Positions 2,795-42,254 of a stretch of 64,000 bases of DNA are shown here, piece after piece; the first letter of the stretch is position 1, and every line of letters starts with the position of its first letter. Location of the stretch: positions 88,031 through 152,030 of the forward strand of contig JADJWA010000002.1 in NCBI GenBank assembly GCA_016716605.1, in the 5' to 3' direction. The DNA comes from Flavobacteriales bacterium (GTDB taxonomy: Bacteria; Bacteroidota; Bacteroidia; Flavobacteriales_F; PHOS-HE28). The notes under the pieces are model-generated. The model did not search any database and was not told the DNA's origin. It saw nothing but the letters and a program-made list of their open reading frames with translations. The position numbers were made by a program, and so were the translations under genes.

Positions 2795-3073
2795 ATGGCA
2801 CAGGTCATCATCACCGAAGAGGGGCGCTCCGGCTCCGTGCTTTTTGAATCCGATGGCCGCCGCATCTCCGGCTGGTGGGAATTCGCCGGAGGCGATGCCG
2901 TGGCGATCGTTCACATCGGCAGCGCCAGCGAGTGGCGGCATGGCCACTCCTGGGCGGTGGATCAGCGCGTAGAGATCATGCGCTTCATCGCGGATGAGGT
3001 GATCCGGCAAAAGGCCAGCAGCTGCAAGGCCGTGATCGATGAGGAGGGCGGATGGATCACGCTCAAACGATGA
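2795..3073 (+). CDS. Small hypothetical protein
   Basis: This is the 3' part of the long ORF 2183-3073, which otherwise overlaps the antisense membrane gene. Only the portion after the minus-strand gene end is non-overlapping and protein-like (MAQVIITEEGRSGSVLFESDGRRISGWWEFAGGDAVAIVHIG). Confidence 0.35.
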   Translation: MAQVIITEEGRSGSVLFESDGRRISGWWEFAGGDAVAIVHIGSASEWRHGHSWAVDQRVEIMRFIADEVIRQKASSCKAVIDEEGGWITLKR

Positions 3074-3083
3074 TCTACAGCGG

Positions 3084-4160
3084 ATGAGCGACACAAAGGA
3101 TGAACAGGAGACCGCCGTCGCATGGTACCGGCGGTACCGTTCGCTGGGCCTCAAGCTCTCGCTATTCGTGGGCGTTGCGGCCCTCATCTTCGGCGCTGTG
3201 ATGTGGTTCGGGAAGAAGGTCCTCTCCGTGGCCCCCGCGAGCGGAGTTCCGCTGGGCGAATGCGTGCGCACCGAAAGCCACATCGCCTCGCTCATTCAAG
3301 CCACCGACCCGCACCTGCCCGAGATCAGCGGCCGCGGCGGAAACACCACCACGAGCGTCAGCATCCTGATCATTCCGATGGATGGGAGCGAGCCGAAGAA
3401 GATCCTGATCGCCGAGGGCCTCACGTCGAATCAGTTCGCCTTAGCGAAGATCCTCGGCAGTGATGGACAGGTCCTGTGGTTCGACGTCAACGGCATCGGC
3501 GGCGTGGACCTGAAGCGCTTGGCATTGCTGCAACCCGCAGAAGTGCGAGACCCCTACGTGCCGAAGTCCGCATGGCCCTTCGCGATCAGCGCTGACACCT
3601 ACCTCTCCGCTGGTTTCATCGTAGCGCACGGACAATGGCTCGGGCTCCATTCAGAAGAGGAGCTGATGAGCGAGTTCGCTCCGAAGAAGTTCTTGCGGCG
3701 CGTGGTCCCGCAGCCACTTCGCTCTGCTCGTGGTGACGGCCTACCAGTGCGCCGATTCCATCGCGGTGTGCTTGAAGCGCCCGTGGATGAGAAGTACCAT
3801 CGCATCATTTCCATGGATCCGCTCAGCAACGATGCGTACTTCAATGCGGCCTTCCTGCGCATGGACGACGATGCGGAACCGATTCGCCTCACCGATCCCG
3901 ATGGCGCGCTCATGATCCACACCTCTGAGCCCGGGCTCAAGGGCACCACCGCCATCTCTCGTGTCGACCTTGATGGCAGGGTCATTTGGTCAGTGGATAC
4001 CGCCATCGATCGCTTCAAGCTCTTGCAGATCCTGCCGGGGAAAGAGTCGTTCGCCTTCGTGGGCACGCGGCTGCCCGTGCCGGATAAGCTGAGTGAGCCC
4101 TTGGTGGTGATCGTGGATAATGCCACAGGTGAGGTGCGCTCGGAGACGTTGTGGAGGTAG
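3084..4160 (+). CDS. Hypothetical single-pass membrane protein with large C-terminal domain
   Basis: Start MSDTKDEQ. One TM (LSLFVGVAALIFGAVMWF) followed by about 300 aa of soluble domain. A diverged copy of its last 52 codons recurs at 6630-6797. Confidence 0.6.
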   Translation: MSDTKDEQETAVAWYRRYRSLGLKLSLFVGVAALIFGAVMWFGKKVLSVAPASGVPLGECVRTESHIASLIQATDPHLPEISGRGGNTTTSVSILIIPMDGSEPKKILIAEGLTSNQFALAKILGSDGQVLWFDVNGIGGVDLKRLALLQPAEVRDPYVPKSAWPFAISADTYLSAGFIVAHGQWLGLHSEEELMSEFAPKKFLRRVVPQPLRSARGDGLPVRRFHRGVLEAPVDEKYHRIISMDPLSNDAYFNAAFLRMDDDAEPIRLTDPDGALMIHTSEPGLKGTTAISRVDLDGRVIWSVDTAIDRFKLLQILPGKESFAFVGTRLPVPDKLSEPLVVIVDNATGEVRSETLWR

Positions 4161-4199: not shown

Positions 4200-4240
4200 G
4201 CATTGACTTGATGCCCCGAGGTCTGGAAGGATCCGTCTAC
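4200..4240 (+). promoter_or_regulatory. Candidate Bacteroidota-type promoter (-33 TTG / -7 TAnnTTTG) upstream of the NTPase-LRR gene
   Basis: TACATTTG at about 4228-4235 matches the Bacteroidota -7 consensus TAnnTTTG. A TTG lies about 25 nt upstream, in ATTGACTTG. Confidence 0.35.
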
Positions 4241-4274
4241 ATTTGATTCACAGGGTTCCAACGCCAGCCCATCG

Positions 4275-6608
4275 ATGTCCAAAGGATCCCAAGGTGAGCC
4301 AACGGTCCTTGACCTGCTCAAGGAGCTGAAGGAGTACATCATCGTGCTCGCCCTGCTCGCCAGCGTGGTGGGCTACCTTGCGTACAACCTGCACAAGCTG
4401 CCGGAGAGCATGTGGCTGTTGCGCATCCTGTTCTGGATGGCCGTGCCGGTGATCCTGCTGCTGATCTACCTCTACAACCTGCGGCCTGCCATGATCAGGC
4501 AGCGCGAGCTGCGCATCCGTCCTACCGGCGACCCCACGGCGGAGTACTTCACGACGTCGCCACGGACGGAAGCGGATAGCGCGCTTTTCAATGGTAAACC
4601 GGAATACGAGAAGATTCTGAGCTGGCTGATGAGCGCGCATGAACCCGTCCTGATGCTCACTGGTCAATCGGGGGTTGGCAAGAGTTCGTTGGTCGATGCG
4701 TACTTGGCGCCTGAGCTGAGCAAACACTCCGAGCCGCGTATAGAGGTCGTCCGTTTGCGTGCAGGGCAGGATCCGCTTGCTGAGTTGAAGGGTGCCTTAT
4801 CTGAACGGCTGAAGGCTTTCGGCAATGATGCCGGCAACCTGGATGCCCTTCAACTGGTGAGCGCCTTGGAAAGCATCGCACCTGCTGGACATCGCACGCT
4901 GATCGTGCTGGACCAATTCGAGGAGTTCTTCCTGTTGCAAGGCGCGGTCGCCAATGCGGATCCCGTGAGCGCGGGAAAACCGATCGTGCATCAGCCGATG
5001 GTTGAGGAACTCCGGGATTTTTTCCGCAGGCTGTTGGTACTGCGGCCAACGCGCCTTTCCATCCTGCTCTCCTATCGTGAAGACCACCAGCCAATGGTGG
5101 ACGCACTTGAACTGCCCGCGCGGACCGAGCGGCTCAACTGGATGCCCGTGTACCCGATGTCACTTGCCAGCACGCGGGCCTTCATCAACGCCTGCCCCGG
5201 CCTCAATGTGCCGAAGGAGCGCATGGACAAGGTGATCGCAGAGGCCGCACGGTACGAGGATAGCCAGGGCATCCGGCCGATCGTGTCTAACATCCTCGGG
5301 CTCGTGCTGCTCCGTATGGTCGACCATCCTACGGCCTGGCGAAGGACCGACGATCTACTGCGCTATTACGTGGAGAGCGGATTGGGTAAGGAATTGCGGC
5401 TCGACCGGGCCAAAGTGCTCCGATCGCTGCTTTCTGATTTCAGGACCGCAACACCGCATGCCGTCAGGAAATTGGCGAGCTCGACGCGCTGGTCCGTACG
5501 CACCCTGGAGAACCAATTGGAACTACTCGGACACCATGGCCTGCTGCGCTGCCTGAATCCCGCCGAACCGGAGCCTGGCGAGCGCAAATGGCAGATCGCG
5601 CATGACTTCCTCGCCTTGCAGGTGGATCGCGTAATGCCCGGCATTCATCAAACGACCTTCCGTGCGATCCGCCCGTGGCTCGCTCCGACAGCCTTGCTCA
5701 TCGTCATCCTGCTTACCTCATTCATCGCCAATAGCCCCGAAGACAGAGCCGCACGCTCGCTCCGTGAAGTCGGGCTGATGTGGGATCCGGAACGGCGGAC
5801 GATCGAGTCATCAAGCTACGCCGAGGAGAACCTCTCATCGGAAATGATCCGTGAACGGAAAGGCGATCTGGTGCTCCTTGATCCGCAAGCGATGAGTGTC
5901 TACTCCGAGGTATTGGTCGATCTCGAATGGCTTCAGGGACTTCAATCGTTGCGATCCCTTGATATCCTTGGCTGCAATGAGCTGAAGGATCTTAGTGGAT
6001 TGCATTGGGCACCCGGAATCGTGGAACTTGAGATATCTCTGAACACCGGTATCGAGGAACTGGGCGGGCTGCAACACCTCCACGGGCTCAGGTTCTTTTC
6101 TATGGCATATTGCCCAAAGCTCAACGGTATCGAAGAGTTGTCGGGCCTGACAAGCCTGCGAACGCTGAGCCTGGCGAGCAACGACTGGCTGAAGGACTTG
6201 AACGCGATACGCGGCTTGGATTCGCTGGAGCAACTTCGCCTGGGTAATTGCCAACAACTCACCGACTTCAGCGGGCTGCAAGGCTTTGCGCGGCTAAGTC
6301 GTCTGGACTTGAAGAGGTGCGTTCGGCTGAAGGACCTCGAAGCGCTGCGCGGGTTGACCTCACTCCGGGCGCTTGACATCTCCTTTTGCGACAGCCTTGT
6401 CGACCTGAGCGCGCTGACGGCACTACCTGCCATGGATACCTTGCGCTTGCATGGGCCGTGGTTGTTCGAGATGGTGGATGAACTACCACCATTACCCCAA
6501 CCGCGACGGATAGAGATCGGTGCATGCGAATTACCCGTCGGTGCCGATACCGCAGGTCTTCGCGCGAAACTCCCCCATATGGTGGTGCTACCGAAACCGG
6601 ATAGGTAG
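4275..6608 (+). CDS. Membrane-anchored P-loop NTPase (STAND/NACHT-like) with C-terminal cysteine-containing leucine-rich repeats; NLR-like candidate sensor/defence protein
   Basis: 777 aa. Two N-terminal TM helices (IIVLALLASVVGYLAY; MWLLRILFWMAVPVILLLIYLY). Walker A LMLTGQSGVGKSSLV and Walker B TLIVLDQFEEFF. A third hydrophobic helix (LAPTALLIVILLTSFIANS). About 10 LRRs of LxxLxxLxLxxCxxLxDLSxL type (LDILGCNELKDLSGL, LRLGNCQQLTDFSGL, LDLKRCVRLKDLEAL, LDISFCDSLVDLSAL). Confidence 0.8.
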   Translation: MSKGSQGEPTVLDLLKELKEYIIVLALLASVVGYLAYNLHKLPESMWLLRILFWMAVPVILLLIYLYNLRPAMIRQRELRIRPTGDPTAEYFTTSPRTEADSALFNGKPEYEKILSWLMSAHEPVLMLTGQSGVGKSSLVDAYLAPELSKHSEPRIEVVRLRAGQDPLAELKGALSERLKAFGNDAGNLDALQLVSALESIAPAGHRTLIVLDQFEEFFLLQGAVANADPVSAGKPIVHQPMVEELRDFFRRLLVLRPTRLSILLSYREDHQPMVDALELPARTERLNWMPVYPMSLASTRAFINACPGLNVPKERMDKVIAEAARYEDSQGIRPIVSNILGLVLLRMVDHPTAWRRTDDLLRYYVESGLGKELRLDRAKVLRSLLSDFRTATPHAVRKLASSTRWSVRTLENQLELLGHHGLLRCLNPAEPEPGERKWQIAHDFLALQVDRVMPGIHQTTFRAIRPWLAPTALLIVILLTSFIANSPEDRAARSLREVGLMWDPERRTIESSSYAEENLSSEMIRERKGDLVLLDPQAMSVYSEVLVDLEWLQGLQSLRSLDILGCNELKDLSGLHWAPGIVELEISLNTGIEELGGLQHLHGLRFFSMAYCPKLNGIEELSGLTSLRTLSLASNDWLKDLNAIRGLDSLEQLRLGNCQQLTDFSGLQGFARLSRLDLKRCVRLKDLEALRGLTSLRALDISFCDSLVDLSALTALPAMDTLRLHGPWLFEMVDELPPLPQPRRIEIGACELPVGADTAGLRAKLPHMVVLPKPDR

Positions 6609-6829: not shown

Positions 6830-7939
6830 ATGCATGTATTGCACCTTCTGCTTGTCGGCGCTTCCTTCAACGCCATCATCGTGCAGGCCCAGCCTTGGGA
6901 ACGCCCGCTGATGCAGGCGTGGTCGGCTGATGGCGTCACCTTTTCCGTGCCCTCGATCTTCCAGGATTCCTCTGGCGTGCCGTCAGTGATCCGCTGGAAG
7001 CCAGACACGCTCATATGCGCCTTCCAATGGTTCCGCCAGCCCATGGGCTCACCATCCTGGGACCGCGTCGCCGTGAAATTCTCCTACGATGACGGCCAGA
7101 GCTGGACTACGCCCGAAGCGATCCTTGTGAACGGCCTGCCATCGGGCTATCAACGGCCCTTCGACCCTACGCTCGTGAAGCTTGGCGGCGACAGCCTGCG
7201 CATCTACTTCTCATCCAGCGCCACGCCGCCCATGGGACTCGATGCCTCAGTGAACACCTATTCGGCCCACACCACCGATGGCGTCAACTACACCTTCGAG
7301 CCAGGTGCGCGCGTGGACGTGGCCACCATGCCCGTGATCGATCCCGCCGTGATCCGCTTCGGGCCGGGCTGGCACTACGCCGCGCCGGCCGGTGCGCCGC
7401 AGGATGGCGCTTACCACTACCTCTCGCCCAATGGGATCGACTTCAACGCCGTGCCCATGATTCCGTCCGACGCCATGCACAACTGGACCGGCAACTACAT
7501 GGTGGAAAGTCCGAACGAGCTCCGCTTCTATGGCGCTGGGCAGAACGGGGTCTGGTACAACTCCTCGCCGAACGGCGGCACCTGGAACGGCTACGTGAGC
7601 ACCAACATCATGGGCGGCGACCCGAGCGTGGTGAAGGTGGCTGACAACAGCTACCTGATCGTTTACGTGGGCCAGCCATACGCCATGGGTCTTGATGGAC
7701 CAGCTGCCTCAAGCGCGAAAGTATCGGTGGTGCCGGTGCCCGCGCGCGACAGGCTCCGCCTCGTGAACGGATCATCTGTTGTGAGCTACCTGATCCTGAG
7801 CATGGCCGGTGCGATCCTGCAAGAAGGCCGGCCGATGAACGGGATGATCGATGTGCAGCGCATTCCGGCAGGCGCGCACCTCCTGCAACTGCATGATGCG
7901 GAGGGTGAGCGCACGACCTTGCGGATCATGAAGGATTAG
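6830..7939 (+). CDS. Secreted BNR/Asp-box (sialidase-fold-like) protein with T9SS C-terminal sorting domain
   Basis: Signal peptide. One Asp-box SYDDGQSWTTP. The C-terminal roughly 80 aa is a Por secretion tail (VSVVPVPARDRLRLV...LQLHDAEGERTTLRIMKD). Confidence 0.7.
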   Translation: MHVLHLLLVGASFNAIIVQAQPWERPLMQAWSADGVTFSVPSIFQDSSGVPSVIRWKPDTLICAFQWFRQPMGSPSWDRVAVKFSYDDGQSWTTPEAILVNGLPSGYQRPFDPTLVKLGGDSLRIYFSSSATPPMGLDASVNTYSAHTTDGVNYTFEPGARVDVATMPVIDPAVIRFGPGWHYAAPAGAPQDGAYHYLSPNGIDFNAVPMIPSDAMHNWTGNYMVESPNELRFYGAGQNGVWYNSSPNGGTWNGYVSTNIMGGDPSVVKVADNSYLIVYVGQPYAMGLDGPAASSAKVSVVPVPARDRLRLVNGSSVVSYLILSMAGAILQEGRPMNGMIDVQRIPAGAHLLQLHDAEGERTTLRIMKD

Positions 7940-9401: not shown

Positions 9402-10130
9402 CTACTTAAGATCCCGAATGTGATCATCGAGTTGTGCCAGAATGGAAGCGATGTCATGCTCCATCGCTTCATACCGCCCTTGCATGTACTTGCGGATGAA
9501 GAGGTTCATCTTCACGACCTCCTGGAATTTCCTGTCATCCATGAGCCGCTCATGGTCCACTGGCGTGGCCGATACCCACATGGCTTCCACGTTCAGGTGC
9601 TCCAGGACTTGCGGATAGACATGGTTCCATTGGTAGCCATCATCAAGGCCCTTCTCAACATTCTCCAGGTACACGTACTTCATGGAGTACAGGGCTGATA
9701 TGGCATTGCGCAGGCTGTCGTCAGAGATCAGGTCGATGCCCACGGACTTCAGGTTCTCCCAGGCCGCGGTATTCTCGCTGAGCTGGAAGTTGCCGAGGAT
9801 GTTTCCATAATGCTTCTCCAGCGTATCGCTCAGAGGCGTTCGCTCCTGGAACGCATTCAGGACCGCTTCATTCGCACGGATGCGCTTCAGGTTGCCGGTG
9901 ACGTTGTATCGCACGTCCAGCAGGTCCGCCACTAGGTTCTGCCGCATTTCCTGCAGCAGTACCAGTTCCTTGCTGCGCGTTTTGGCCTCAGCGCTGGCAT
10001 TGTTGATGCTCAGCGCGATCAAGATGCCGATCACCACCAGCACGATCTCACCCACGGCATAGACTAGGTAGCGCGTGAGGCGGTTCTCCTTCAGGAGCCG
10101 CTGGCGGATGATGTTGAAGATGCGGGGCAT
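9402..10130 (-). CDS. Hypothetical membrane-anchored protein (lower-GC gene)
   Basis: Trimmed to MPRIFNIIRQRLL... One N-terminal TM (YLVYAVGEIVLVVIGILIALSI) then a soluble alpha-rich domain. The local GC is visibly lower than the surroundings. Confidence 0.55.
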   Translation of the reverse strand: MPRIFNIIRQRLLKENRLTRYLVYAVGEIVLVVIGILIALSINNASAEAKTRSKELVLLQEMRQNLVADLLDVRYNVTGNLKRIRANEAVLNAFQERTPLSDTLEKHYGNILGNFQLSENTAAWENLKSVGIDLISDDSLRNAISALYSMKYVYLENVEKGLDDGYQWNHVYPQVLEHLNVEAMWVSATPVDHERLMDDRKFQEVVKMNLFIRKYMQGRYEAMEHDIASILAQLDDHIRDLK

Positions 10131-10304
10131 GGGCAGGGTTGGTCGGTGAAGATGCAGAATCGGCCCTTTCCGCAGCTCATTCCACGGATGCGGCGACAAG
10201 CAGCAGAAGCAAGGTTGAACGACGCATGGCCGCAGAAGCAACCCACCATACCCCAATCGCGGTATTCCGACGCAACCATTCCGTTCGGACCTTCGCCGCC
10301 TTCC

Positions 10305-10574
10305 ATGATACCGGAAAGCGAGCGCACCATCAGCCTGGACCAATTGCCCGAAGAGGGCTCGGCCACGGTTGCCGGCGTCACCGTGCCCACGGATGCGGCT
10401 GAGCGCACCCTCGTGCTGCGCCTGCTCGAACTCGGCTTCGTGCCAGGCGAGCGCGTGCAGGTGATCCATGAAGGCCGTCATCGCCGGGATCCCATTGCCG
10501 TGCGATTGGGCCACACCACTTTCGCATTGCGCCGCCATGAAGCTGCCTTCATCCAAGTGACCCCTTCAGCGTAG
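10305..10574 (+). CDS. feoA: Ferrous iron transport protein A (FeoA)
   Basis: About 89 aa SH3-like FeoA (GSATVAGVTVPTDAAERTLVLRLLELGFVPGERVQVIHEGRHRRDPIAVRLGHTTFALRRHEAAFIQV). Lies directly upstream of and abuts feoB. Confidence 0.75.
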   Translation: MIPESERTISLDQLPEEGSATVAGVTVPTDAAERTLVLRLLELGFVPGERVQVIHEGRHRRDPIAVRLGHTTFALRRHEAAFIQVTPSA

Positions 10575-12410
10575 ATGAGCGCCGCCACTCCTGCCCTGCC
10601 GCTGCGCATCGCCCTGCTGGGCAATCCGAACTGCGGCAAGACGGCGCTCTTCAACCTGCTCACCGGCAGCCGCCAGAAGGTGGCCAACTATGCAGGCGTC
10701 ACCGTGGAGCGCAAGGAAGGCGTGATGCGCACCGCGAGCGGACGACGCATCAAGGTGCTCGACCTGCCCGGTGCGTACAGCCTCAACGCGCTCTCGAATG
10801 ATGAAGCCGTGACGCGCGATGTGATCACCGGACATAGCAAAGAGGCCTTGCCCGACCTGCTGGTGTGCGTTGCCGATGCCACCAACCTGAGGCTGCACCT
10901 GCGCCTGGTGCTCGAGGCGCGACAGCTCGGCCTGCCCTTGCTGGTGGTGCTGAACAAGATGGATCGCGCCAAGCAGCTCGGCATCTCCATCGACAAGGCC
11001 CTGCTCGCCCGCGAGCTCAACCTCCCCGTGGTGGAGACCGTGAGCTTGCACGCGCACGGCGCCGATGCGCTTCGCGCAGCCTTGGATCAACCGCTTCGTG
11101 CAGCACCGCCGCCGCATTGGAAACAGCCCGACGTGGAGCAGGTGCTGGCCACGCAGCGCGATGTGCTCGGCATCTTCAACCGCACCGTCACCTCCCCAAC
11201 CACCGATAAGGACCCGAGCATCCGCATCGACCGTTTCCTGATGCATCCGGTCTGGGGCTTCGCGGTGCTCGCGCTCGTGCTCTTCGTCACCTTCCTCGCG
11301 GTGTTCTCCGGCGGTGATGTGCTCTCCGGCTGGATCGAGGATGGCTTCGGCGCAATCGCCAGCGCTGTTGAAGCGAATATGGCGGACGGCCCCTTGCGCG
11401 GCTTGATCGTGGAAGGCGTCATCGGCGGCGTGGGCGGCGTGATCGTGTTCCTGCCGCAGATCTTGATTCTCTTCCTGTTCATCCTCGCGCTCGAAGGATC
11501 GGGCTACCTGCCGCGCGCGGCCTTCCTGCTCGATAAGCCCATGAGCGCCGCAGGGCTCTCGGGCCGCTCCTTCATCCCCCTGCTCAGCAGCTTCGCCTGC
11601 GCCATCCCGGGCATCATGGCCACGCGCACCATCAGTCATTGGCGCGACCGCCTCACCACCATCCTCATCGCCCCGCTCATGGCCTGCTCGGCGCGCATCC
11701 CGGTGTACACGCTGCTCGTGGCGGCCCTCTTCCCCGACGATGCCCTGTCTGCCGCCCTGGTGATGGTGGGCCTGTACGCGCTCGGCATCGTGGCGGCCAT
11801 GACGGTGGCTTGGTTCATCAAGCGCTCCGACAAGCACGCTGCCCGCTCACCCCTGCTCATGGAGCTGCCCGCCTATCAATGGCCCGATGTGCGCAGCCTC
11901 GTGATCGGGCTGTGGGAGCGCGCCGTGATCTTCCTGCGCCGCGTGGGCACCATCATCCTCGCCATCACCATCGTGATGTGGGCGCTCTACACCGTGCCCT
12001 CTCCGCGCGACAATGGACGAAGCCTCGCCGGCGAGCTCGGTCATGCTCTGCACCAGGTGTTCAAGCCCATCGGCTTCAACGAGCAGATCTCCTTCGCGCT
12101 GGTGCCCGGCATGGCCGCGCGCGAAGTGGTGGTGAGCGCGCTGGGCACTGCCTACGCAATGGATGGCGACGAGGACGAATTGGATGAGCAGCTCCGCGAG
12201 CGCATCACGCGCGAATGGCCCTTGGCCACCAAGCTCTCGCTCCTGCTGTGGATGGTCTTCGCCCCGCAATGCCTCAGCACCTTCGTGGTGGTGAAGCGCG
12301 AGACCGGTTCGTGGAAGCAGATGTGGATCATGGGCGGCTACCTCTTCGCACTGGCCTACCTTGCCAGCCTCATCACCTACCAGCTCACCGCTTTCCTCTG
12401 CGCACCTTGA
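10575..12410 (+). CDS. feoB: Ferrous iron transporter FeoB
   Basis: 611 aa. N-terminal G-domain (GNPNCGKTALFN, DLPG, NKMD) then a multi-TM gate domain. Confidence 0.95.
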   Translation: MSAATPALPLRIALLGNPNCGKTALFNLLTGSRQKVANYAGVTVERKEGVMRTASGRRIKVLDLPGAYSLNALSNDEAVTRDVITGHSKEALPDLLVCVADATNLRLHLRLVLEARQLGLPLLVVLNKMDRAKQLGISIDKALLARELNLPVVETVSLHAHGADALRAALDQPLRAAPPPHWKQPDVEQVLATQRDVLGIFNRTVTSPTTDKDPSIRIDRFLMHPVWGFAVLALVLFVTFLAVFSGGDVLSGWIEDGFGAIASAVEANMADGPLRGLIVEGVIGGVGGVIVFLPQILILFLFILALEGSGYLPRAAFLLDKPMSAAGLSGRSFIPLLSSFACAIPGIMATRTISHWRDRLTTILIAPLMACSARIPVYTLLVAALFPDDALSAALVMVGLYALGIVAAMTVAWFIKRSDKHAARSPLLMELPAYQWPDVRSLVIGLWERAVIFLRRVGTIILAITIVMWALYTVPSPRDNGRSLAGELGHALHQVFKPIGFNEQISFALVPGMAAREVVVSALGTAYAMDGDEDELDEQLRERITREWPLATKLSLLLWMVFAPQCLSTFVVVKRETGSWKQMWIMGGYLFALAYLASLITYQLTAFLCAP

Positions 12411-34607: not shown

Positions 34608-36242
34608 TCACTCCACCACCACGGCGATCCGCTTCGCCGCAGCACCGCTGCCCAGCTCCAGCACATAGCCGCCCGGCGCCAGGGCACGCACATCGAGGGT
34701 GAGCGATCCGTTGGAACCGGAGCGCTTGGCCAAGGCCACGCGGCCCATGGCATCGAGCAGCCGCACGTCCGTGCTGGCCGACACCCCGGTAACCGTAATG
34801 GTCTCATCGGCTGGTTGCGGATAGACACGCAGGCCCATGGCCACGGCATCGGCTACGCCCACCGTGCCGAAGTACACGGGCGCGCTCGTGCTCTGGCATC
34901 CGTTCGCATCGGTGATGGTCACGCTGTAGTTGCCGTTGGCCAACGGAGCCCACTCCTGTTCGATGGCACCGGCGATGAGCTCGCCGTCGAGGTACCACTG
35001 GTACGTTGAAGCAGGCGTGGAGCTCATGGTCATGCCCAGGTTCGTCACCACGGGCATGGCAGGCGCATCGAGCACATCGATGGCCACGGTGGTGTCGTGC
35101 GCGCAACCGAAGGCGTCGGTGCCGTAAACGGTCCAAGTGAAATCGCTCGGCGGCCAGGCGCTGATGGCATCGCCGGTATTGCCGCTGATGAAGAGGTTCG
35201 GGCTCCACTGGTAGTTGAGCGCGCCCACCGCGCTGAGCGCTGCGGTATCGCCGGGGCACAGGGTACTGTCCACAGCCGAGGCGATCACCGTGGGCAGCTC
35301 ATGCACGGTCACCGTCACCGCATCGTCGTCCTGGCAGCCGTTGGCATCGGTGACCACCACGGTATAGGTGGTGGTCTCGGTGACGGTGACCACCGGGTTC
35401 GTGATGGCGGGGTTGCTCAACCCGGTGCTGGGCGACCATTGGTAGCTGCTCCCTCCGGAGGCTTGCAGCTGCCCGGTCTGCCCGATGCACACATCCTCGT
35501 CCGGCCCGGCCGAGGCATTGGGCGGGGCGTGCACGAGGATGTAATCGCTCAGCTGCAGCTCATCGGGGCCGTTGGCGGTCACCACGCTCAGCACCACATC
35601 GAAGCTCCCGGGGTTGGGGTACAGCACCAGCGGATCCGGCTCGGTGCTCGTGGTGGGCACGCCGCCCTCGAAGTACCACACGTAGCTGCTCGGCGATCCT
35701 AGGCTGGCGTCGGTGAATTGCACCGAACCACCGGGGCAGAAGCTCACATCGCTGGCGGTGAAGCTGGCGGCGTGCGCATCGTACTCCAGGGTGAGCCCGC
35801 TCACCACCGGGTCGTTGAAGGAGGAGCAGCCCACGCCCGGATAGCACGAATCCTGCACGCGCACGCGACCGGTGACCGAGCCTGCGCCGGTGGCGATCGC
35901 GTTGGTGAGGTTGGCGTTCGAGATGTTAGCCGTGCGGCTGAAGGTGACGCACTCCGTTACGTTGCCGGTCTCGTAATAGACCTGCGTCCACGCATCCGCG
36001 CCGGTCTCCAGTTCGATCCAGATCTTGCTGCTTCCGCCGAAGACCTGCTGCCAGCAAGCCAGCCAGCCGAAATCGAGCGAGGCGCCGCCGCCCGTGGGCG
36101 CGGTCGTGTTCGGGAAGGTGAACTCCACCCAGCTGTTGAGCTGCGAGCCTTGGATGTTCGGCAGCGTCTGCGAATACGGGATCTGCGCGCTGGCATGCAC
36201 GCAGGTGAAGAGGAAGAGGATGGCGGTGATGAGGTGGCGCAT
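34608..36242 (-). CDS. Secreted multi-domain (PKD/Ig-like) protein with T9SS C-terminal sorting domain
   Basis: Signal peptide. Repeated PKD-like stretches (TYTVVVTDANGCQDDDAVTVTV). C-terminus RLLDAMGRVALAK...GGYVLELGSGAAAKRIAVVVE. Confidence 0.8.
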   Translation of the reverse strand: MRHLITAILFLFTCVHASAQIPYSQTLPNIQGSQLNSWVEFTFPNTTAPTGGGASLDFGWLACWQQVFGGSSKIWIELETGADAWTQVYYETGNVTECVTFSRTANISNANLTNAIATGAGSVTGRVRVQDSCYPGVGCSSFNDPVVSGLTLEYDAHAASFTASDVSFCPGGSVQFTDASLGSPSSYVWYFEGGVPTTSTEPDPLVLYPNPGSFDVVLSVVTANGPDELQLSDYILVHAPPNASAGPDEDVCIGQTGQLQASGGSSYQWSPSTGLSNPAITNPVVTVTETTTYTVVVTDANGCQDDDAVTVTVHELPTVIASAVDSTLCPGDTAALSAVGALNYQWSPNLFISGNTGDAISAWPPSDFTWTVYGTDAFGCAHDTTVAIDVLDAPAMPVVTNLGMTMSSTPASTYQWYLDGELIAGAIEQEWAPLANGNYSVTITDANGCQSTSAPVYFGTVGVADAVAMGLRVYPQPADETITVTGVSASTDVRLLDAMGRVALAKRSGSNGSLTLDVRALAPGGYVLELGSGAAAKRIAVVVE

Positions 36243-36524: not shown

Positions 36525-39500
36525 ATGCCCACTCTGCCTCGCCTTTCGCGTGCGCTCGGCCTCACCGTGCTGTGCGCTTTCGTGCTAGCTGCCTGCCGCA
36601 ACAACGAGAAGGGCGCCAAGCCCGATGCCGCCTTCACGCCCTACATCCCCGCCTTCACCGGCGGGCACATCAGCGCGCGCTCGCCCATCATCGTGCGCAT
36701 CGCTGCGGGGCAGCGCTGGCGCGATAGCTCGGCCACGGCCCTGCAGGAACTCTTCGACCTCTCGCCCAGCGTGAAGGGCCGCGTGGAGATGCGCGATGAG
36801 CTCACCCTGGCCTTCGTTCCCGATGAACGATTGGCGCAGGACAAGACCTACGCGGTGCGCTTCAGGCTCGGCGACCTGATCGAGGTGCCCAAGGGATTGG
36901 AGGACTTCCGCTTCGAGGTGAGCACCTTCAAGCAAGGCATCGATGCACGCGTGAACGAGATGCAGTCGCTGAGCGCCACCGACCTGAAGTGGCAGCGGCT
37001 CATCGCCAGCGTGTACACCAGCGACGATGCCACCGGCCAGGACCTCGAAGGCTGCTTCACCGCGAAGCAAGAAGGCCGCGATCTGCCGCTCACCTGGGAG
37101 CATGAGCCCAACGGCCGCTATCACCGCTTCACGGTGGACAGCGTGAAGCGCGGCGATGCAGCCTCGCGCGTGGACATCAACTGGAACGGCAAGGGCATCG
37201 GCAGCACCGACGCCGCCACCCTGCCCTTCGATGTGCCTGCCATCGGCGATCTCGCGCTGATCAGCGCCACCACCTTCAGCGATGGCGAGCAGTTCGCCAC
37301 GCTGCTCTTCAGCGATCCGCTGGACCCCGCTCAGGACCTGCGCGGCCTCGTGGGCATTGCCGGCGCCGACGACCTGCGCATCGCGCACGATGGCAACAAG
37401 CTCGTGCTCTATCCCGCCCAGCGGCTCACAGGCAAACAGGACGGTTACGTGAGCGCCGGCCTGCGCAACGTGAACGGCCGCACGCTTGGCAAAGAGGTGA
37501 GCGTGGAACTGGTGTTCGAGGAACTCAAGCCCGCCGTGCGCTTCAACGGCAAGGGCACCATCCTGCCCAGCACCGATGGCCTGCTCCTCCCCTTCCAGGC
37601 CGTGAACCTGAAGGCCGTTGATGTGCGCGTGATCAAGGTGCACGAGAGCAACGTGAGCCAGTTCCTGCAGGTGAATGCGCTCGATGGCAACCGTGAACTG
37701 GCGCGTGTAGGTCGCCTGGTCTCGCGCAAGACCATCAGCCTAAAGACCGCCGACAGCCCCGACCTGGGCCGCTGGAACACCTACTACCTCGATCTCGCCG
37801 ACCACCTCAAGACCGAGCCCGGCGCCGTGTACCGCGTGGAGCTCTCCTTCGGCCGCCATCAGAGCGTGTATCCCTGCGAGGGCGGCGATCCCGTGGAGGT
37901 CCCGCGTGAGAAGAGCTGGGAAGAAGAGCAAGCCGCCTACGACGACCAACAGGATTACTGGTACTACGACGACTACGAGTATTACGACTACGACGAAGGG
38001 TACAACTATCAGGAGCGCGAGGATCCCTGCAAGGCCAGCTACTACTTCCGCAACACCACGGCGGCGCGCAACATCCTCGCGAGCGACATCGGCCTGATCG
38101 CCAAGGTGGGCAACGACGGCAGCATGCTGCTGGCAGTGAGCGACCTGAAGACCGCCAAGCCCTTGAGCGGCGTGAAGCTCGACCTGCTCGACTTCCAGCG
38201 CAAGAGCATGGGTCAGACCGTGACCGATGGCGAGGGCCTGGCCACCCTGCCCGCATCGAAGCACAAGCCCTTCCTGCTCGTGGCCAGCAAAGGCTCGCAG
38301 CGCGGCTACCTCAAGCTCGACGACGGCGGCTCGCTCAGCGTGAGCAGCTACGACGTGGAGGGTGAAGCCATCGAGAAAGGATTGAAGGGCTTCCTCTATG
38401 GCGAGCGCGGCTTGTGGCGTCCCGGCGATTCGCTCTACCTGAGCTTCATGCTGCAGGATCCGAAGCACACCTTGCCGAAGGACCATCCGGTGGTGCTGGA
38501 GATCAGCGATCCGCGCGGACGGTTGGATCAGAAGCATGTGCGCACCACCAGCGTGAACGGCGTGTACGCCTTCCGCTGCGCCACCGTGCCCGATGCGCCC
38601 ACCGGGTATTGGAACGCCGTGGTGCGCGTGGGCGGCACCGCCTTCCACAAGAGCCTGCGCATCGAAACGGTGAAGCCCAACCGCCTGAAGGTGCTGCTCG
38701 ATTTCCCCGACGGGCCCAGCGGCACCGAAGGCCAGCGACTCAGCGCCGATGGCGGCACCACCATCAAATTGCGCTCGCACTGGCTGCATGGCGCCCCCGC
38801 CAAGAACCTGAAGAGCCGCGTGACGGTGACCATGACGCACGGCTGGCCCGAATTCAAGGGCTACGACAAATACGAGTTCAACGATCTGCGCACCTGGGTG
38901 CCCGATGAGGAGCAAGTGGCCTTCGATGGCAACCTGAATGAGAAGGGCGAAGCCGCCTTCGACCTCGACCTGCACATGGGCCGCAGCGCGCCTGCCGTGG
39001 TGCAGAAAAACATCGTGACCCGCGTCTTCGAGGCCGGCGGCGATGCCAGCATGGACCGCGTGAGCGTGCCCTACTACCCCTACACCAGCTACGTGGGGAT
39101 CAAGTCGCCCGAAACGCGCAACAACTGGGGCACTTACATCACCGACACCAGCTACCAGTTCAGCATCGCCAGCATCGATGCCAAGGGCAAGCCCATCGCG
39201 CAGCACCAATTGAAGGCGCAGGTGTACAAGCTCAACTACAACTGGTGGTGGGATGGCGGCATCACCGGAGCGGCCAGCTACATCTCATCGCCGAGCGTGG
39301 AACTGCAGCAAGAGAAGGAACTCACCACCGATGCGAAGGGCAGAACGACCTTCAAGTTCCGGATCGATCGTCCGCAATGGGGCCGCTTCGCCATCCGCAT
39401 CACCGATCCCGCCAGCGGCCATGCCAGCGCCGTGCAGGTGTACATGGATTGGCCCGGCTGGGAAGGCCGCAGCCGGCGGCAGGACCCCGACCAGGCCGCC

Positions 39501-42161
39501 GTGCTCAGCTTCAATGCCGACAAGGAGAAGTACCACGTGGGCGACAACTGCACGCTCATCATCCCCAGCGGCGGCACCGGCCGTGCCTTGGTGAGCCTGG
39601 AGACCGGCAGCCGCGTGCTCGATGCCGTGTGGGTGGACCTGAAGGCCAAGGAGACCCGCCACTCCTTCCCCATCACCGCCGACATGGCGCCCAACGTGTA
39701 CGCGCACGTCATGCTCATTCAGCCGCAAGAGCTCACGCGTCCGGAGCAGGAAGGCGGCAAGGGCAACGACCTGCCCATGCGGCTCTACGGCGTGATCCCG
39801 ATCCTGGTGGAGGACCCGCTCACGCACCTGGCACCTGTGCTCGCGGCGCCGAAGGAGATCAGGACCGATGCGCCCTTCAGCGTGGAAGTGGCCGAGAAGA
39901 GCGGAAGGCCCATGACCTACACCCTCGCCATCGTCGATGAAGGGCTGCTCGACCTCACGCGCTTCAAGACACCCGATCCCTGGAACCACTTCTATGCGCG
40001 CGAGGCGCTCGGCGTGCGCACCTGGGACCTCTACGACCAGGTGATCGGCGCATACGGCAGGCAATTGCAGCGCGTGCTCGCCCTCGGCGGAAGCGACGAT
40101 GCCGGCAAGGGCGACGCCGCGCGCGCCAACCGATTCAAGCCCGTGGTGCGCTTCGTGGGCCCCTTCAAGCTCGAGCGCGGAAAGAGGGCCAGGCACGACT
40201 TCACCATCAGCAACTACGTGGGCAGCGTGCGCATGATGGTGGTGGCCACCGACGGCGACAAATCCTACGGCAACGCCGAACAAGCCGTGCCCGTGCGCAA
40301 GCCCTTGATGGTGCTGGCCACCCTGCCGCGCGTGCTCGCTCCTGGCGAAACAGCGGACCTGCCGGTCACCGTCTTCGCGATGGACCCGAAGGTGAAAGAG
40401 GTGATCGTGAAGATCGAGCCGAATGAACTGCTGATCCCCGAAGGCCCATCGCAGAAGACCATCCGCTTCAGCAGCGCCGGCGATCAGGTGGTGAGCTTCC
40501 GCGTGAAGGTGAAGGAGGCCGTGGGCGTGGCGAAATTGAAAGTGAGCGTGAGCGGCGCGGGCGAGAGCGCGAGCGAGAAGATCGAATTGCAGGTGCGGCA
40601 GCCGAACCTGCCCGCCACGGAAGTCACCGAAGCCTTGTTGGATGCCGGCAAGAGCTTCAGCGCGACCCCGGCTGCCCTCGGCGTGCGAGGCACCAACAGC
40701 GCCTACCTCGAGATCAGCAGCATACCGGCGGTTGACATGGGCCGCCGACTGCAATACCTGCTCGACTATCCGCACGGCTGCCTGGAGCAGACCACCAGCA
40801 AGGCCTTCCCGCAGCTCTTCATCGCCAAGGTGATGGAGCTGCCCGTGCGCGGTGAGCAGATGGCGCGCGCCAACGTGGAGGCCGCGCTGCGGAAGATGGT
40901 GCAGTTCCAGCGCGCCGATGGCGGCTTCAACTACTGGCCCGGCGGCGACCACTATGACACCTGGACCTCGATCTATGCCGGCCACTTCATGGTAGAGGCC
41001 GACCGATCAGGCTACGCCATGCCCGGCAACGTGAAGAGCAATTGGCTCGCCTTCCAGCGCAAGCAGGCACGCGAATGGAACGGCGTGGTGCCCGAGAGCT
41101 GGAGCCGCAACGCCACGCAATTGGTGCAGGCCTATCGCCTCTATGTGCTGGCGCTCGGCAAGGCACATGAGCTGCCGGCGATGAACCGCCTGCGCGAGCA
41201 GAGCGACCTGGGCCTGCAGGCGAAGTGGATGCTCGCGGCGGCCTACGCGCACGCTGGACGGAAGGACGTGGCGCAGCAGCTGGTCAACGGCGCGAGCACG
41301 CAGGTGTCGCCCTACACCGAGCAGTACTGGACCTACGGCAGCGACCTGCGCGACGAGGCCATGATCGTGGACGCCCTCATCGCCATGGGCGACATGGAGA
41401 AGGCCGCGCCCGTGGTCGCGCGGATCGCGAAGAGGTTGAGCAGCAACGATTGGTGGAGCACGCAGAGCACCGCCTTCGGCCTGCTCGCCGTGAGCCGCCT
41501 GGCCGAGAAGAGCCAACTGGGCAAGGGCATGAACTACGCGCTCACCCTCAATGGCAAGCGAACGGAGAAGTTCAGCGAGCGCGCCATCAGCCGGATCGAT
41601 CTGCCGGTGCCGGATGGCAAGTCCAGCGTGAAGATCGAGAACACGGGCAAGGCATTGCTCTACGCACGGCTCGTGCGCACGGGAACGCCCCTGGCTGGGC
41701 AGGAGAACGCCACCAGCAGCGGATTGGGCATGACCGTGGCTTACACCCTCATGGATGGCACCAGCATCGATCCCGCGCGCATCGAGCAAGGCACCGACTT
41801 CATGGCGGTGGTCAACGTGACGCACCCGGGCGTGAGCAACGGCTACCAGCAGCTGGCCCTTTCGCAGCTATTCCCCAGCGGCTGGGAGATCCGCAACACG
41901 CGCCTCGAAGGCACGCTGACAGGAGCGGCACAAGGCCCCTTCACCTATCAGGACATCCGCGACGACCGCGTGCTCACCTACTTCAACCTGTGGCGCGGGC
42001 AAACGCACACCTACCGCGTGCTGCTCAACGCCAGCTACACCGGTCGGTACTACCTGCCGGGCGCGGTGTGCGAGGCCATGTACGACCATACGATCCATGC
42101 GCGGAGCTTGGGCCGCTGGGTGGAAGTGGTGGAGGCGGGCGGTACGGTGGCGGAGGAGTAG
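36525..42161 (+). CDS. Alpha-2-macroglobulin family lipoprotein with intact thioester
   Basis: 1878 aa. Lipobox VLAAC. The MG-domain repeats give the large size. Thioester CLEQ (YPHGCLEQTTSKAFPQL) at nt 40778-40789. Confidence 0.95.
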   Translation: MPTLPRLSRALGLTVLCAFVLAACRNNEKGAKPDAAFTPYIPAFTGGHISARSPIIVRIAAGQRWRDSSATALQELFDLSPSVKGRVEMRDELTLAFVPDERLAQDKTYAVRFRLGDLIEVPKGLEDFRFEVSTFKQGIDARVNEMQSLSATDLKWQRLIASVYTSDDATGQDLEGCFTAKQEGRDLPLTWEHEPNGRYHRFTVDSVKRGDAASRVDINWNGKGIGSTDAATLPFDVPAIGDLALISATTFSDGEQFATLLFSDPLDPAQDLRGLVGIAGADDLRIAHDGNKLVLYPAQRLTGKQDGYVSAGLRNVNGRTLGKEVSVELVFEELKPAVRFNGKGTILPSTDGLLLPFQAVNLKAVDVRVIKVHESNVSQFLQVNALDGNRELARVGRLVSRKTISLKTADSPDLGRWNTYYLDLADHLKTEPGAVYRVELSFGRHQSVYPCEGGDPVEVPREKSWEEEQAAYDDQQDYWYYDDYEYYDYDEGYNYQEREDPCKASYYFRNTTAARNILASDIGLIAKVGNDGSMLLAVSDLKTAKPLSGVKLDLLDFQRKSMGQTVTDGEGLATLPASKHKPFLLVASKGSQRGYLKLDDGGSLSVSSYDVEGEAIEKGLKGFLYGERGLWRPGDSLYLSFMLQDPKHTLPKDHPVVLEISDPRGRLDQKHVRTTSVNGVYAFRCATVPDAPTGYWNAVVRVGGTAFHKSLRIETVKPNRLKVLLDFPDGPSGTEGQRLSADGGTTIKLRSHWLHGAPAKNLKSRVTVTMTHGWPEFKGYDKYEFNDLRTWVPDEEQVAFDGNLNEKGEAAFDLDLHMGRSAPAVVQKNIVTRVFEAGGDASMDRVSVPYYPYTSYVGIKSPETRNNWGTYITDTSYQFSIASIDAKGKPIAQHQLKAQVYKLNYNWWWDGGITGAASYISSPSVELQQEKELTTDAKGRTTFKFRIDRPQWGRFAIRITDPASGHASAVQVYMDWPGWEGRSRRQDPDQAAVLSFNADKEKYHVGDNCTLIIPSGGTGRALVSLETGSRVLDAVWVDLKAKETRHSFPITADMAPNVYAHVMLIQPQELTRPEQEGGKGNDLPMRLYGVIPILVEDPLTHLAPVLAAPKEIRTDAPFSVEVAEKSGRPMTYTLAIVDEGLLDLTRFKTPDPWNHFYAREALGVRTWDLYDQVIGAYGRQLQRVLALGGSDDAGKGDAARANRFKPVVRFVGPFKLERGKRARHDFTISNYVGSVRMMVVATDGDKSYGNAEQAVPVRKPLMVLATLPRVLAPGETADLPVTVFAMDPKVKEVIVKIEPNELLIPEGPSQKTIRFSSAGDQVVSFRVKVKEAVGVAKLKVSVSGAGESASEKIELQVRQPNLPATEVTEALLDAGKSFSATPAALGVRGTNSAYLEISSIPAVDMGRRLQYLLDYPHGCLEQTTSKAFPQLFIAKVMELPVRGEQMARANVEAALRKMVQFQRADGGFNYWPGGDHYDTWTSIYAGHFMVEADRSGYAMPGNVKSNWLAFQRKQAREWNGVVPESWSRNATQLVQAYRLYVLALGKAHELPAMNRLREQSDLGLQAKWMLAAAYAHAGRKDVAQQLVNGASTQVSPYTEQYWTYGSDLRDEAMIVDALIAMGDMEKAAPVVARIAKRLSSNDWWSTQSTAFGLLAVSRLAEKSQLGKGMNYALTLNGKRTEKFSERAISRIDLPVPDGKSSVKIENTGKALLYARLVRTGTPLAGQENATSSGLGMTVAYTLMDGTSIDPARIEQGTDFMAVVNVTHPGVSNGYQQLALSQLFPSGWEIRNTRLEGTLTGAAQGPFTYQDIRDDRVLTYFNLWRGQTHTYRVLLNASYTGRYYLPGAVCEAMYDHTIHARSLGRWVEVVEAGGTVAEE

Positions 42162-42254
42162 GGGTCGGCCAGGTTTGGAGGATGCTGGATGGGGCGGATC
42201 GGTACCTTCCCGCCGACAGGTAATATCCACTGTCACCCACCTATGCCCTCTCCC

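Follow-up and report, generated by a model that had tools for sequence, protein, structure and literature searches.

Whether a bacterial NLR-like protein can carry its sensor on the far side of the inner membrane is the question raised by one gene in a 64,000-nucleotide stretch of a Flavobacteriales genome (assembly GCA_016716605.1, contig JADJWA010000002.1, positions 88,031 to 152,030; hereafter the window). The gene lies at 4275..6608 of the window on the forward (+) strand, and a first-pass annotation had described its product as a STAND-like NTPase with transmembrane (TM) helices, fused to leucine-rich repeats (LRRs) and possibly active in defence. The protein is a real, conserved, and uncharacterised membrane-spanning variant of the bacterial NLR-like proteins. 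The reading that we favour overall, with moderate confidence, is that it is an NLR-like receptor of the nSTAND1 clade that resides in the inner membrane and probably serves as a conflict sensor facing the periplasm.

The open reading frame (ORF) claimed at 4275-6608 is present. It starts with ATG, includes a stop codon, and encodes a TM-TM-nSTAND1-TM-LRR protein of 777 amino acids, all features of which are given below on the + strand. The Walker A motif GQSGVGKSS (residues 130-138, 4662-4688) and the Walker B motif LIVLDQFEEF (residues 209-218, 4899-4928) were found as the annotation had quoted them. In Pfam, nSTAND1 (PF20703) matched residues 98-332 with 72.4 bits against a gathering cut-off of 27.1 (E=7e-20, profile positions 9-224 of 379), and LRR_4 matched the C-terminal third with 71.2 bits against a cut-off of 27 (E=6e-20), together with LRR_8, LRR_EndoS, LRR_RPS2, and other LRR families. 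The profile search that had been suggested as a check thus returned a STAND NTPase and LRR_4, but NACHT (PF05729) and NB-ARC (PF00931) were absent from the 18 Pfam matches at E<=0.1, and KAP_NTPase and LRR_6 had no match in the 777-residue protein. Judged from its sequence, the NTPase is a member of nSTAND1, a clade named in 2021 (Kaur, Iyer, Burroughs & Aravind, eLife; PMC8195603), and not of a new clade; nor is it a NACHT, NB-ARC, Avs, or KAP protein. No effector domain is fused to it according to Pfam, as the annotation had stated, and only 20 residues precede TM1.

Three 19-residue windows had a Kyte-Doolittle (KD) value above 1.9, namely residues 21-39 (TM1, 4335..4391; 1.97), 48-66 (TM2, 4416..4472; 2.46), and 467-485 (TM3, 5673..5729; 2.03), and the next-best window elsewhere in the protein reached 1.31. 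All three lie outside the nucleotide-binding domain (NBD): TM1 and TM2 end before residue 67, and TM3 begins after residue 466. A word-indexed search of 5.8 billion proteins gave 30 matches, all with a precomputed PF20703 annotation; one was a 94% allele, and 25 others, at 27-39% identity, were annotated with nSTAND1 and LRRs, except for the 540-residue P0026, which had the nSTAND1 annotation only. In nearly all of 26 homologs, a pair of hydrophobic segments lies 60-110 residues ahead of Walker A, and a third follows Walker B at a distance of about 250-290 residues. Because the same pattern recurs in homologs of only 25-39% identity, it is not a product of chance, and the annotated pair of N-terminal TM helices with a third after the NTPase is borne out by both hydropathy and recurrence. 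TM counts were extended to 157 representatives with recognisable Walker motifs, among which TM1 was found in 117, TM2 in 141, and TM3 in 134, with at least 100 residues following TM3 in 125.

An AlphaFold2 (AF2) model was built from an alignment of 26 family members and had a mean predicted local confidence (pLDDT) of 85.2. In this model, N-terminal helices at residues 11-40 and 44-81, which hold TM1 and TM2, are followed by an alpha/beta P-loop domain (about 109-292), a helical domain (HD, 297-350), and a winged-helix domain (WHD, 361-441) with a beta-hairpin at 424-441. A single continuous helix, 444-485, contains TM3. In the gene, the NBD (residues 101-295) corresponds to 4575..5159 and the HD and WHD (residues 296-445) to 5160..5609. 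A Foldseek search of the PDB placed plant coiled-coil NLR (CC-NLR) resistosomes at the top, namely ZAR1 (6j5t, E=2e-13), a wheat resistosome, NRC2/3/4, Sr35, and RPP1; the plant NLR matches were full-length, with E=2e-13 to 1e-8 at a sequence identity of 11-14%. The NTPase region matched Apaf-1 (3shf), CED-4 (8jns), and Orc1/Cdc6, and the probability was 1.00 for ZAR1, NRC, Sr35, RPP1, Apaf-1, CED-4, and Orc/Cdc6. As modelled, the protein has the NBD, helical, and winged-helix fold common to Apaf-1, CED-4, and the NLRs. The proposed combination of a STAND NTPase with LRRs is thus confirmed by Pfam matches above the gathering cut-offs and by an NLR-type fold. When the PDB was searched by sequence with the TM-STAND-TM profile, the only matches were to P-loops (UvrA, Rab, RsgA); therefore, no nSTAND1 protein has a solved structure.

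Some of the invariant residues are candidates, by position, for motifs of a nucleotide switch. Among 26 sequences of 25-36% identity, the invariant positions are G130, S132, G133, G135, K136, and S138, D213-E217 (the DQFEE of Walker B), R268, and D270, followed by R334-P335-I336..N339..G342 (the RPI..N..G motif, residues 334-342 within 5160..5609) and W439..H443-D444-F445. Arg268 (5076-5078), at the end of the predicted strand 261-268, is the candidate STAND sensor-1 arginine, and P335 may represent the GxP-type motif of the helical domain. H443-D444 (5601-5606) is the putative counterpart of the plant NLR MHD motif, and in the model it directly precedes the helix that runs on into TM3. A conserved segment between TM2 and the NBD, predicted to be cytoplasmic and juxtamembrane (residues 67-100, 4473..4574), carries the motif NLxPAxxRxRELxxRPxG...YFTTSPR with invariant Y91, F92, and P96; its mean top-residue frequency was 0.62, compared with 0.58 for the NBD and 0.46 for the TM helices.

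After TM3, the model shows a small alpha/beta linker domain (residues 486-545, 5730..5909), predicted to be extracytoplasmic, with a helix (488-498), two strands (501-504, 509-512), helices in 522-535, and a strand (539-543); its pLDDT is mostly >90, and its AIxxLxxxGxxW motif is conserved in the family consensus. The putatively extracytoplasmic LRR solenoid (residues 546-777, 5910..6605) follows with about ten 23-residue repeats and a C-terminal cap. Between residues 561 and 745, its modelled beta-strands recur exactly every 23 residues, and a terminal strand at 769 precedes the cap. About ten cysteine-containing repeats had been annotated, and the modelled strands agree, with a cysteine at the asparagine-ladder position in five or six. 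The assignment to the RNI-like class, whose repeats have 28-29 residues (LRR_6), was refuted by the 23-residue period, the lack of an LRR_6 match, and the best LRR fold matches, which were the Listeria internalins InlB, InlF, and InlH (root-mean-square deviation 2.2-5.0 Å over 161-253 columns, 21-28% identity). The solenoid instead consists of internalin/SDS22-like LRRs of 23 residues, in which cysteine often takes the place of the ladder asparagine. NCBIfam internalin_A showed domain-level similarity (5.7e-11), far under its full-length cut-off.

The side of the membrane on which these repeats lie was assessed from charge. Over 40 members, the net charge per 15 residues was +3.65 after TM2 and +2.88 before TM3, compared with -0.09 in the TM1-TM2 loop and +0.38 after TM3, where the asymmetry across TM3 rests on 34 proteins. 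This distribution fits the annotated placement of the NTPase in the cytoplasm and the LRRs across the membrane. Because of the charge bias, the need of an NTPase for cytoplasmic NTP, and the presence of TIR domains before the hairpin in relatives, the topology is predicted to be N-in, NTPase-in, and LRR-out; because the host is a diderm with a T9SS-type (type IX secretion system) sorting domain and the family taxa are all diderm, the LRR side is predicted to be the periplasm. We are confident of this predicted architecture, with an N-in hairpin, a cytoplasmic NTPase, TM3, and periplasmic LRRs. It is a well-supported prediction that rests on hydropathy, charge bias, and modelled helices, which has to be counted among the points on the other side.

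One other arrangement would be a membrane-tethered cytosolic NLR-like protein, in which TM3 is re-entrant or buried and the LRRs stay in the cytoplasm as in the characterised Avs and bNACHT proteins. Every characterised bacterial STAND sensor does work inside the cytoplasm, and in a few relatives TM3 is followed by ankyrin or WD40 domains, which as a rule are cytoplasmic and would be unusual in periplasmic proteins; moreover, the topology is itself a prediction. Yet residues 467-485 form a run of 19 uncharged residues bounded by charged ones, within a straight 42-residue modelled helix, and the charge drops across this segment. Column entropy was about 2.0-2.1 for all three TM segments, compared with 1.4-1.7 for the NTPase domains; TM3 thus retains hydrophobicity though not sequence, which, for the TM segments in general, is the normal behaviour expected of membrane helices. 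Moreover, the other domains found after TM3 include FGE-sulfatase and YbbR, both of which are common outside the cytoplasm. A cytoplasmic location of the LRRs is accordingly very improbable.

The TM-NTPase-TM core is not confined to close homologs. A second alignment, trimmed to the TM-STAND-TM module, was run as a profile against 1.84 billion representatives (clusters at 50% identity) and gave 31,763 matches at E<=1e-3, corresponding to the wider nSTAND1 family, and 523 at E<=1e-30. The best 150 matches (E<1e-88) all span essentially the whole profile, and at least 150 such clusters share the core as a conserved module. Full-module relatives in a genome scan came from Fimbriiglobus and other Planctomycetota, Acidobacteriaceae, Terriglobales, Blastocatellia, Alphaproteobacteria, Pararobbsia alpina, Paraburkholderia fungorum, and deltaproteobacterial and Verrucomicrobiaceae metagenome-assembled genomes (MAGs). 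The relatives' taxa, all diderm, cover at least six phyla (Planctomycetota, Bacteroidota, Acidobacteriota, Alpha-, Beta-, and Deltaproteobacteria, and Verrucomicrobiota). The ORFs of the genome scan that reach well past TM3 all end in LRRs, and the number of repeats varies widely, from about three (P0025) to about twenty (P0002) across metagenomic homologs. Among the 157 representatives, in which LRRs were judged by eye from the sequences and the Pfam annotations, a minority have other domains in place of the LRRs after TM3: FGE-sulfatase (6.8e-61), WD40-like repeats, YbbR with tetratricopeptide repeats (TPR), ankyrin, a sub-threshold GH19-like domain, and unannotated beta-rich domains. Cytosolic bacterial STAND proteins use the same sensor repertoire.

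The other end of the protein also varies. An N-terminal extension of more than 100 residues before TM1 is present in 15 of the 157 representatives (about 10%). A TIR_2 domain stands ahead of the hairpin in five (P0069, P0100, P0085, P0120, P0135; Pfam E 1e-16 to 1e-33), and the N-termini of P0130 and P0118 were recognised as TIR by eye. Further N-terminal domains are Trypsin_2 (7e-15, P0138), SMEK_N (1e-22, P0113), and DUF4062 (P0099), and P0114 gave a weak transglutaminase-like match. P0085, P0120, P0130, and P0138 retain the full TM-TM-STAND-TM-LRR layout behind these domains. Because relatives combine N-terminal effector domains with swapped external domains, the clade follows the effector-STAND-sensor logic known from NLR-like conflict proteins, with the membrane threaded between the modules.

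Two side observations concern the limits of this architecture. Many of the distant nSTAND1 proteins (L030-L087; e.g., L044, L047, L050, L051, and L059) lack the N-terminal TM pair, as in a cyanobacterial group of 1000-2000 residues with long N-terminal regions. Even so, a 19-mer of strong hydrophobicity occurs in them at the position of TM3, about 200-320 residues past Walker B, and the wider nSTAND1 family may share a TM helix behind the winged-helix domain. In an alphaproteobacterial MAG (L018:9755-11973), the STAND module ORF (9755-11092) and an LRR ORF (11089-11973; LRR_4 5.7e-22) overlap by 4 nucleotides, an arrangement that is either a naturally split gene or a frameshift or assembly error.

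The genomic context of the homologs was then considered as a sign of an immune role, and some loci are clearly linked to conflict. In a Bacteroidia MAG (L001; 1267-9842 and 10001-15136), the paralogs P0006 and P0017 stand in tandem right after a Type I restriction-modification (R-M) system (HsdR, HsdS, HsdM), and a Septu pair, PtuA (1e-173) and PtuB (3e-62), is inserted between hsdS and hsdM. A CHASE2 protein and a 1030-residue TPR protein lie downstream in the same locus. In L003 (9676-15675), a stand-alone 100-residue TIR_2 gene ends 22 nucleotides before the homolog P0010, which is followed by TIR-WD40, TIR, and DUF4365 proteins; L003 could be a multi-gene conflict locus. L006 has a SEFIR-AAA_16 gene nearby and a 122-residue ORF that ends 16 nucleotides upstream of the homolog, and in L005 the homolog is surrounded by transposases and a telomere resolvase. 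Defence neighbours are therefore present in L001/L002, L003, and L006 and absent from the window and from most of about 20 loci. The context is suggestive and not decisive as a sign of an immune role. Taken together, the N-terminal domains of relatives and some defence-island contexts support a tie between the clade and conflict systems.

Several results weigh against a conflict sensor. The PADLOC check proposed with the annotation was negative, in that no Avs, NLR, or other defence-system model matched the protein or its neighbours; matches in PADLOC-DB 2.0 were of P-loop length only (E>=0.0026), to JetC and mad models. When the protein and its neighbours were scanned with NCBIfam, the matches were limited to LRR and P-loop similarity, and none was to a named family. 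In the window, the gene is surrounded by those for a TerB-DnaJ protein, two membrane proteins that lack annotation, a protein whose tail gave a sub-threshold T9SS match, an HI0933-like flavoprotein, and FeoAB; these neighbours are housekeeping-like and had no defence matches in Pfam, PADLOC, or NCBIfam. Most homolog loci are equally generic, with major facilitator superfamily (MFS) transporters, glycosidases, MOSC proteins, and the RNA polymerase omega subunit (rpoZ), and the candidate operonic neighbours proved generic or unannotated in Pfam scans. Neighbours within 5 kb at 21 loci were compared all against all by BLAST, and no partner was conserved; the one link was between L001 and L002, which represent a single region. 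Among IMG/VR contigs there was one strong match only, on a contig without convincing phage genes. Positive selection on the LRRs, which an arms race might have left, was considered but not shown: in the allele pair described below, the ratio of non-synonymous to synonymous substitution (omega) was about 0.2 in NTPase and LRRs alike, and the excess divergence of the LRRs was matched by a higher synonymous divergence (dS).

These results would suit a protein of the same topology with a non-immune function, that is, a housekeeping or adaptive transmembrane switch that reads, through its LRRs, a cue from the periplasm or envelope (stress on the envelope, a protein made by the cell itself, or a nutrient-related or cell-cell signal), and in which the STAND module serves as a regulated assembly platform as in MalT and AfsR. 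The housekeeping-like neighbourhood, the generic loci without a conserved partner, the lack of a PADLOC match, and the omega value without a sign of an arms race are all consistent with such a switch. However, it does not sit well with the TIR, trypsin-like, SMEK, and DUF4062 domains that occupy the effector position in clade members, with loci inside R-M/Septu or TIR-rich islands, or with external sensors (LRR, FGE-sulfatase, WD40, TPR) that are swapped in the pattern of immune STAND proteins. Nor does it account for a patchy distribution over six phyla, with about 3 to about 20 LRR repeats and tandem paralogs, and the typical signalling outputs, such as a helix-turn-helix effector, a kinase, or a cyclase, are absent. 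We consider the non-immune switch a serious but unlikely alternative, and a conflict or immune role is slightly favoured. The defence role proposed in the first-pass annotation is thus one that we infer from effector-type domains in relatives and some defence-island loci, and it has to be set against a housekeeping-like window and the lack of a conserved neighbour.

Two further ideas were examined. An ORF for bAvd, the accessory variability determinant of diversity-generating retroelements (DGRs), lies directly downstream of the homolog P0013 (L007:12702-12905). A DGR was rejected at L007, where there was no reverse transcriptase match and no template/variable repeat pair, only the 69-nucleotide periodicity of the LRRs. 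Prophage carriage was not supported, with 2 weak loci among 2.9 million viral contigs, the better of which, L089, has a transposase and an O-acetyltransferase only.

If the protein is a conflict sensor, a mechanism may be proposed by analogy with Apaf-1, plant NLRs, Avs, and bNACHT. At rest, the invariant His443-Asp444 pair at the end of the winged-helix domain would act like the MHD motif and hold ADP. The periplasmic LRRs would bind a ligand, perhaps a protein of an invading phage, a toxin of a competitor, or a signal of envelope damage. The signal would be relayed through TM3, which is predicted to form a continuous helix from His443, and ADP would then be exchanged for ATP. Activated protomers would oligomerise in the plane of the membrane, like NLR resistosomes and apoptosomes, and this would cluster the N-terminal modules, with activation of TIR or protease effectors in the relatives that have them. 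For the 777-residue protein, which has a bare two-TM hairpin, the favoured output would be damage to the membrane, as a lesion or an ion leak, with arrest of the cell in the manner of abortive infection; recruitment of an unlinked effector would be the main alternative. The ZAR1 funnel and the TM effectors of CBASS and Pycsar are analogues of such a lesion.

The comparison of two alleles bears on this output. An identical protein occurs in a second assembly (L088), and the 94% allele (P0001, L091:196-2526), from another sample, was compared with window positions 4275-6605 as a single sequence pair. Of 45 amino-acid differences, 36 fall among the 292 residues 486-777 and 9 among the 485 residues 1-485 (Fisher p=3e-9). 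The dS was 0.35 in the LRRs, 0.25 in the TM hairpin, and 0.05 (0.055) in the NTPase, which suggests a mosaic or recombinant history of the sensor part, with segment exchange within the gene. The flanks of the allele differ as well, being 82% identical downstream and 96% upstream. Within the hairpin, there were 14 synonymous and 0 non-synonymous differences, where about ten non-synonymous changes would be expected under the gene-wide omega (Poisson p about 6e-5). In this one pair, the result hints that the hairpin is more than an anchor. Special family-wide conservation of the hairpin, which was sought as a sign of a pore, was not found: the entropy was equal across the three TM segments and higher than in the NTPase, so the family-wide pattern does not single out the hairpin as a pore-forming effector. 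The hairpin as effector, an idea based on analogy, is regarded as unlikely.

Alternatively, the hairpin could be an anchor only, with the effector a separate protein acting in trans, either an unlinked TIR-type protein or the adjacent TM-anchored product of 3039-4160 (+). The TIR_2 gene of L003 and the small ORF of L006, each just upstream of a homolog, would fit, as would the lack of special sequence conservation in the TM helices. The upstream gene in the window encodes a 373-residue protein with one N-terminal TM anchor and is syntenic in L088. But it has no Pfam or PADLOC match, and in NCBIfam only a sub-threshold similarity to the PA2928 family (21.8 bits against a cut-off of 70); the L006 ORF has no Pfam match, and no neighbour family recurs across loci. 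Besides, the 20-residue tail before TM1 is too short for an adaptor of the effector-associated domain (EAD) or Death-like type, and the hairpin of the allele pair is under very strong purifying selection. We judge an effector in trans to be quite improbable.

A fuller proposal for the clade is possible but doubtful. Its members would be immune receptors that join the topology of Toll-like receptors to the nucleotide switch of NLRs, sense phage, bacteriocin, or type VI secretion system (T6SS) proteins in the periplasm, either ahead of or during the invader's passage through the inner membrane, and answer through a resistosome-like membrane ring, with the hairpin as a pore or, in relatives, with activation of TIR or protease domains.

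The favoured reading, an inner-membrane NLR-like receptor, can be compared with known systems. With described nSTAND1 proteins, the protein shares Walker A and B and the NBD-HD-WHD organisation, and it has a candidate sensor-1 arginine, assigned by position. Described architectures follow the order effector-STAND-sensor and are discussed as cytoplasmic, whereas here the STAND module is bracketed by a two-TM hairpin and a third TM helix; moreover, only positions 9-224 of the 379-position profile align, so the HD/WHD part has diverged. In conflict systems, nSTAND1 is associated with TIR, caspase, or trypsin effectors, EADs, and FGE-sulfatase or repeat sensors, some of them diversified by DGRs (PMC8195603; 10.1101/2023.09.22.558884). 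Dore et al. (10.1101/2023.09.22.558884) found nSTAND1 in DGR-diversified STAND proteins and predicted periplasmic sensor domains for a NACHT target. A bNACHT preprint (10.1101/2022.07.19.500537) describes a class with 'TM regions' that may sense intramembrane or periplasmic signals. The main text of a 2026 survey of 589 STAND clades makes no mention of LRR, membrane, or periplasm, and there 'transmembrane' occurs once, in the abbreviation list of a figure legend. A full-text literature search, of incomplete coverage and with a supplementary mention possible, found no paper on a TM-TM-nSTAND1-TM-LRR family. The statement of the annotation that no described bacterial defence family matches holds for this architecture as far as that search reached, but the NTPase clade had already been named and TM-containing STAND proteins had been mentioned before.

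Plant CC-NLRs (ZAR1, Sr35, NRC2/3/4) share the NBD-HD-WHD-LRR order and, putatively, the MHD-like His-Asp at the end of the WHD. They are soluble proteins that detect their ligands in the cytosol and enter the membrane only once activated, whereas the present protein is predicted to be constitutively membrane-integral with its LRRs across the membrane. As no NB-ARC match was found in Pfam, the likeness is at the level of fold and architecture only. In ZAR1-type resistosomes, the N-terminal helices insert into the membrane after oligomerisation, which is the model for the proposed hairpin output. The Avs and bNACHT proteins have the same single-gene tripartite logic of N-terminal effector, central STAND, and C-terminal sensor, and the clade shares with them effectors (TIR, protease, TM) and sensors (LRR, TPR, WD40, FGE-sulfatase). 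They differ in that the NTPase here is nSTAND1 and not NACHT or Avs1-5, that their characterised members sense phage proteins in the cytoplasm, that PADLOC models for Avs or NLR do not match the present protein, and that its clade is known from sequence alone.

Toll-like receptors have an external LRR solenoid and a single-pass link to a cytoplasmic signalling part, and the relatives P0085, P0120, and P0130 likewise combine a predicted cytoplasmic TIR with external LRRs. In these relatives, however, a STAND NTPase and a TM hairpin stand between TIR and LRR, and the homology is only that of generic LRR and TIR folds; the 777-residue protein has no TIR in Pfam and thus lacks a single-polypeptide architecture of the Toll-like-receptor type. 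PknB-type receptor Ser/Thr kinases have a cytoplasmic enzymatic domain, one TM helix, and an external ligand-binding repeat domain, a layout that the protein shares without having a kinase. KAP NTPases also combine a P-loop NTPase with TM helices and are linked to conflict systems, but their TM helices are inserted within the P-loop domain, whereas here they flank an intact STAND module.

Since the characterised bacterial NLR-like defence proteins, Avs and bNACHT, detect phage proteins inside the cytoplasm, an external sensor, if true, would extend NLR-type sensing to the envelope. Because TM3 runs directly into the MHD-like motif in the model, the protein would also offer a simple single-protein model of how a ligand signal crosses the membrane into a STAND switch. 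Given its relatives with cytoplasmic TIR domains, it would further represent a prokaryotic architecture that bridges the layouts of Toll-like receptors and NLRs. The modularity of the clade, with external LRR, FGE-sulfatase, WD40, or TPR domains and an internal TIR, protease, or bare hairpin, provides natural variants for testing. If the non-immune switch were true, the proteins would still form a family of transmembrane NTPase receptors, so far uncharacterised, from phyla of environmental importance.

The remaining observations concern the window itself. A candidate Bacteroidota -7 promoter box, TAcaTTTG (4238..4245, +), lies 30 nucleotides upstream of the ATG and matches TAnnTTTG exactly, in line with the promoter that the annotation had proposed; the motif is not enriched in the 64-kb window (5 observed against 4.87 expected), so the promoter is plausible but statistically weak. 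All five matches are on the + strand, at 4238, 21071, 24997, 33139, and 52493. An Rfam scan of the window gave no match. C-terminal T9SS type-A sorting domains occur in the products of 6830-7939 (+), where the match is sub-threshold (E=0.028), and 34608-36242 (-), where it is above the cut-off (34.9 bits), and they point to a Bacteroidota host. A 1878-residue ORF at 36525-42161 (+), with no NCBIfam match at E<=1e-5, adjoins 42189-46301, which encodes a 1370-residue hybrid histidine kinase/response regulator.

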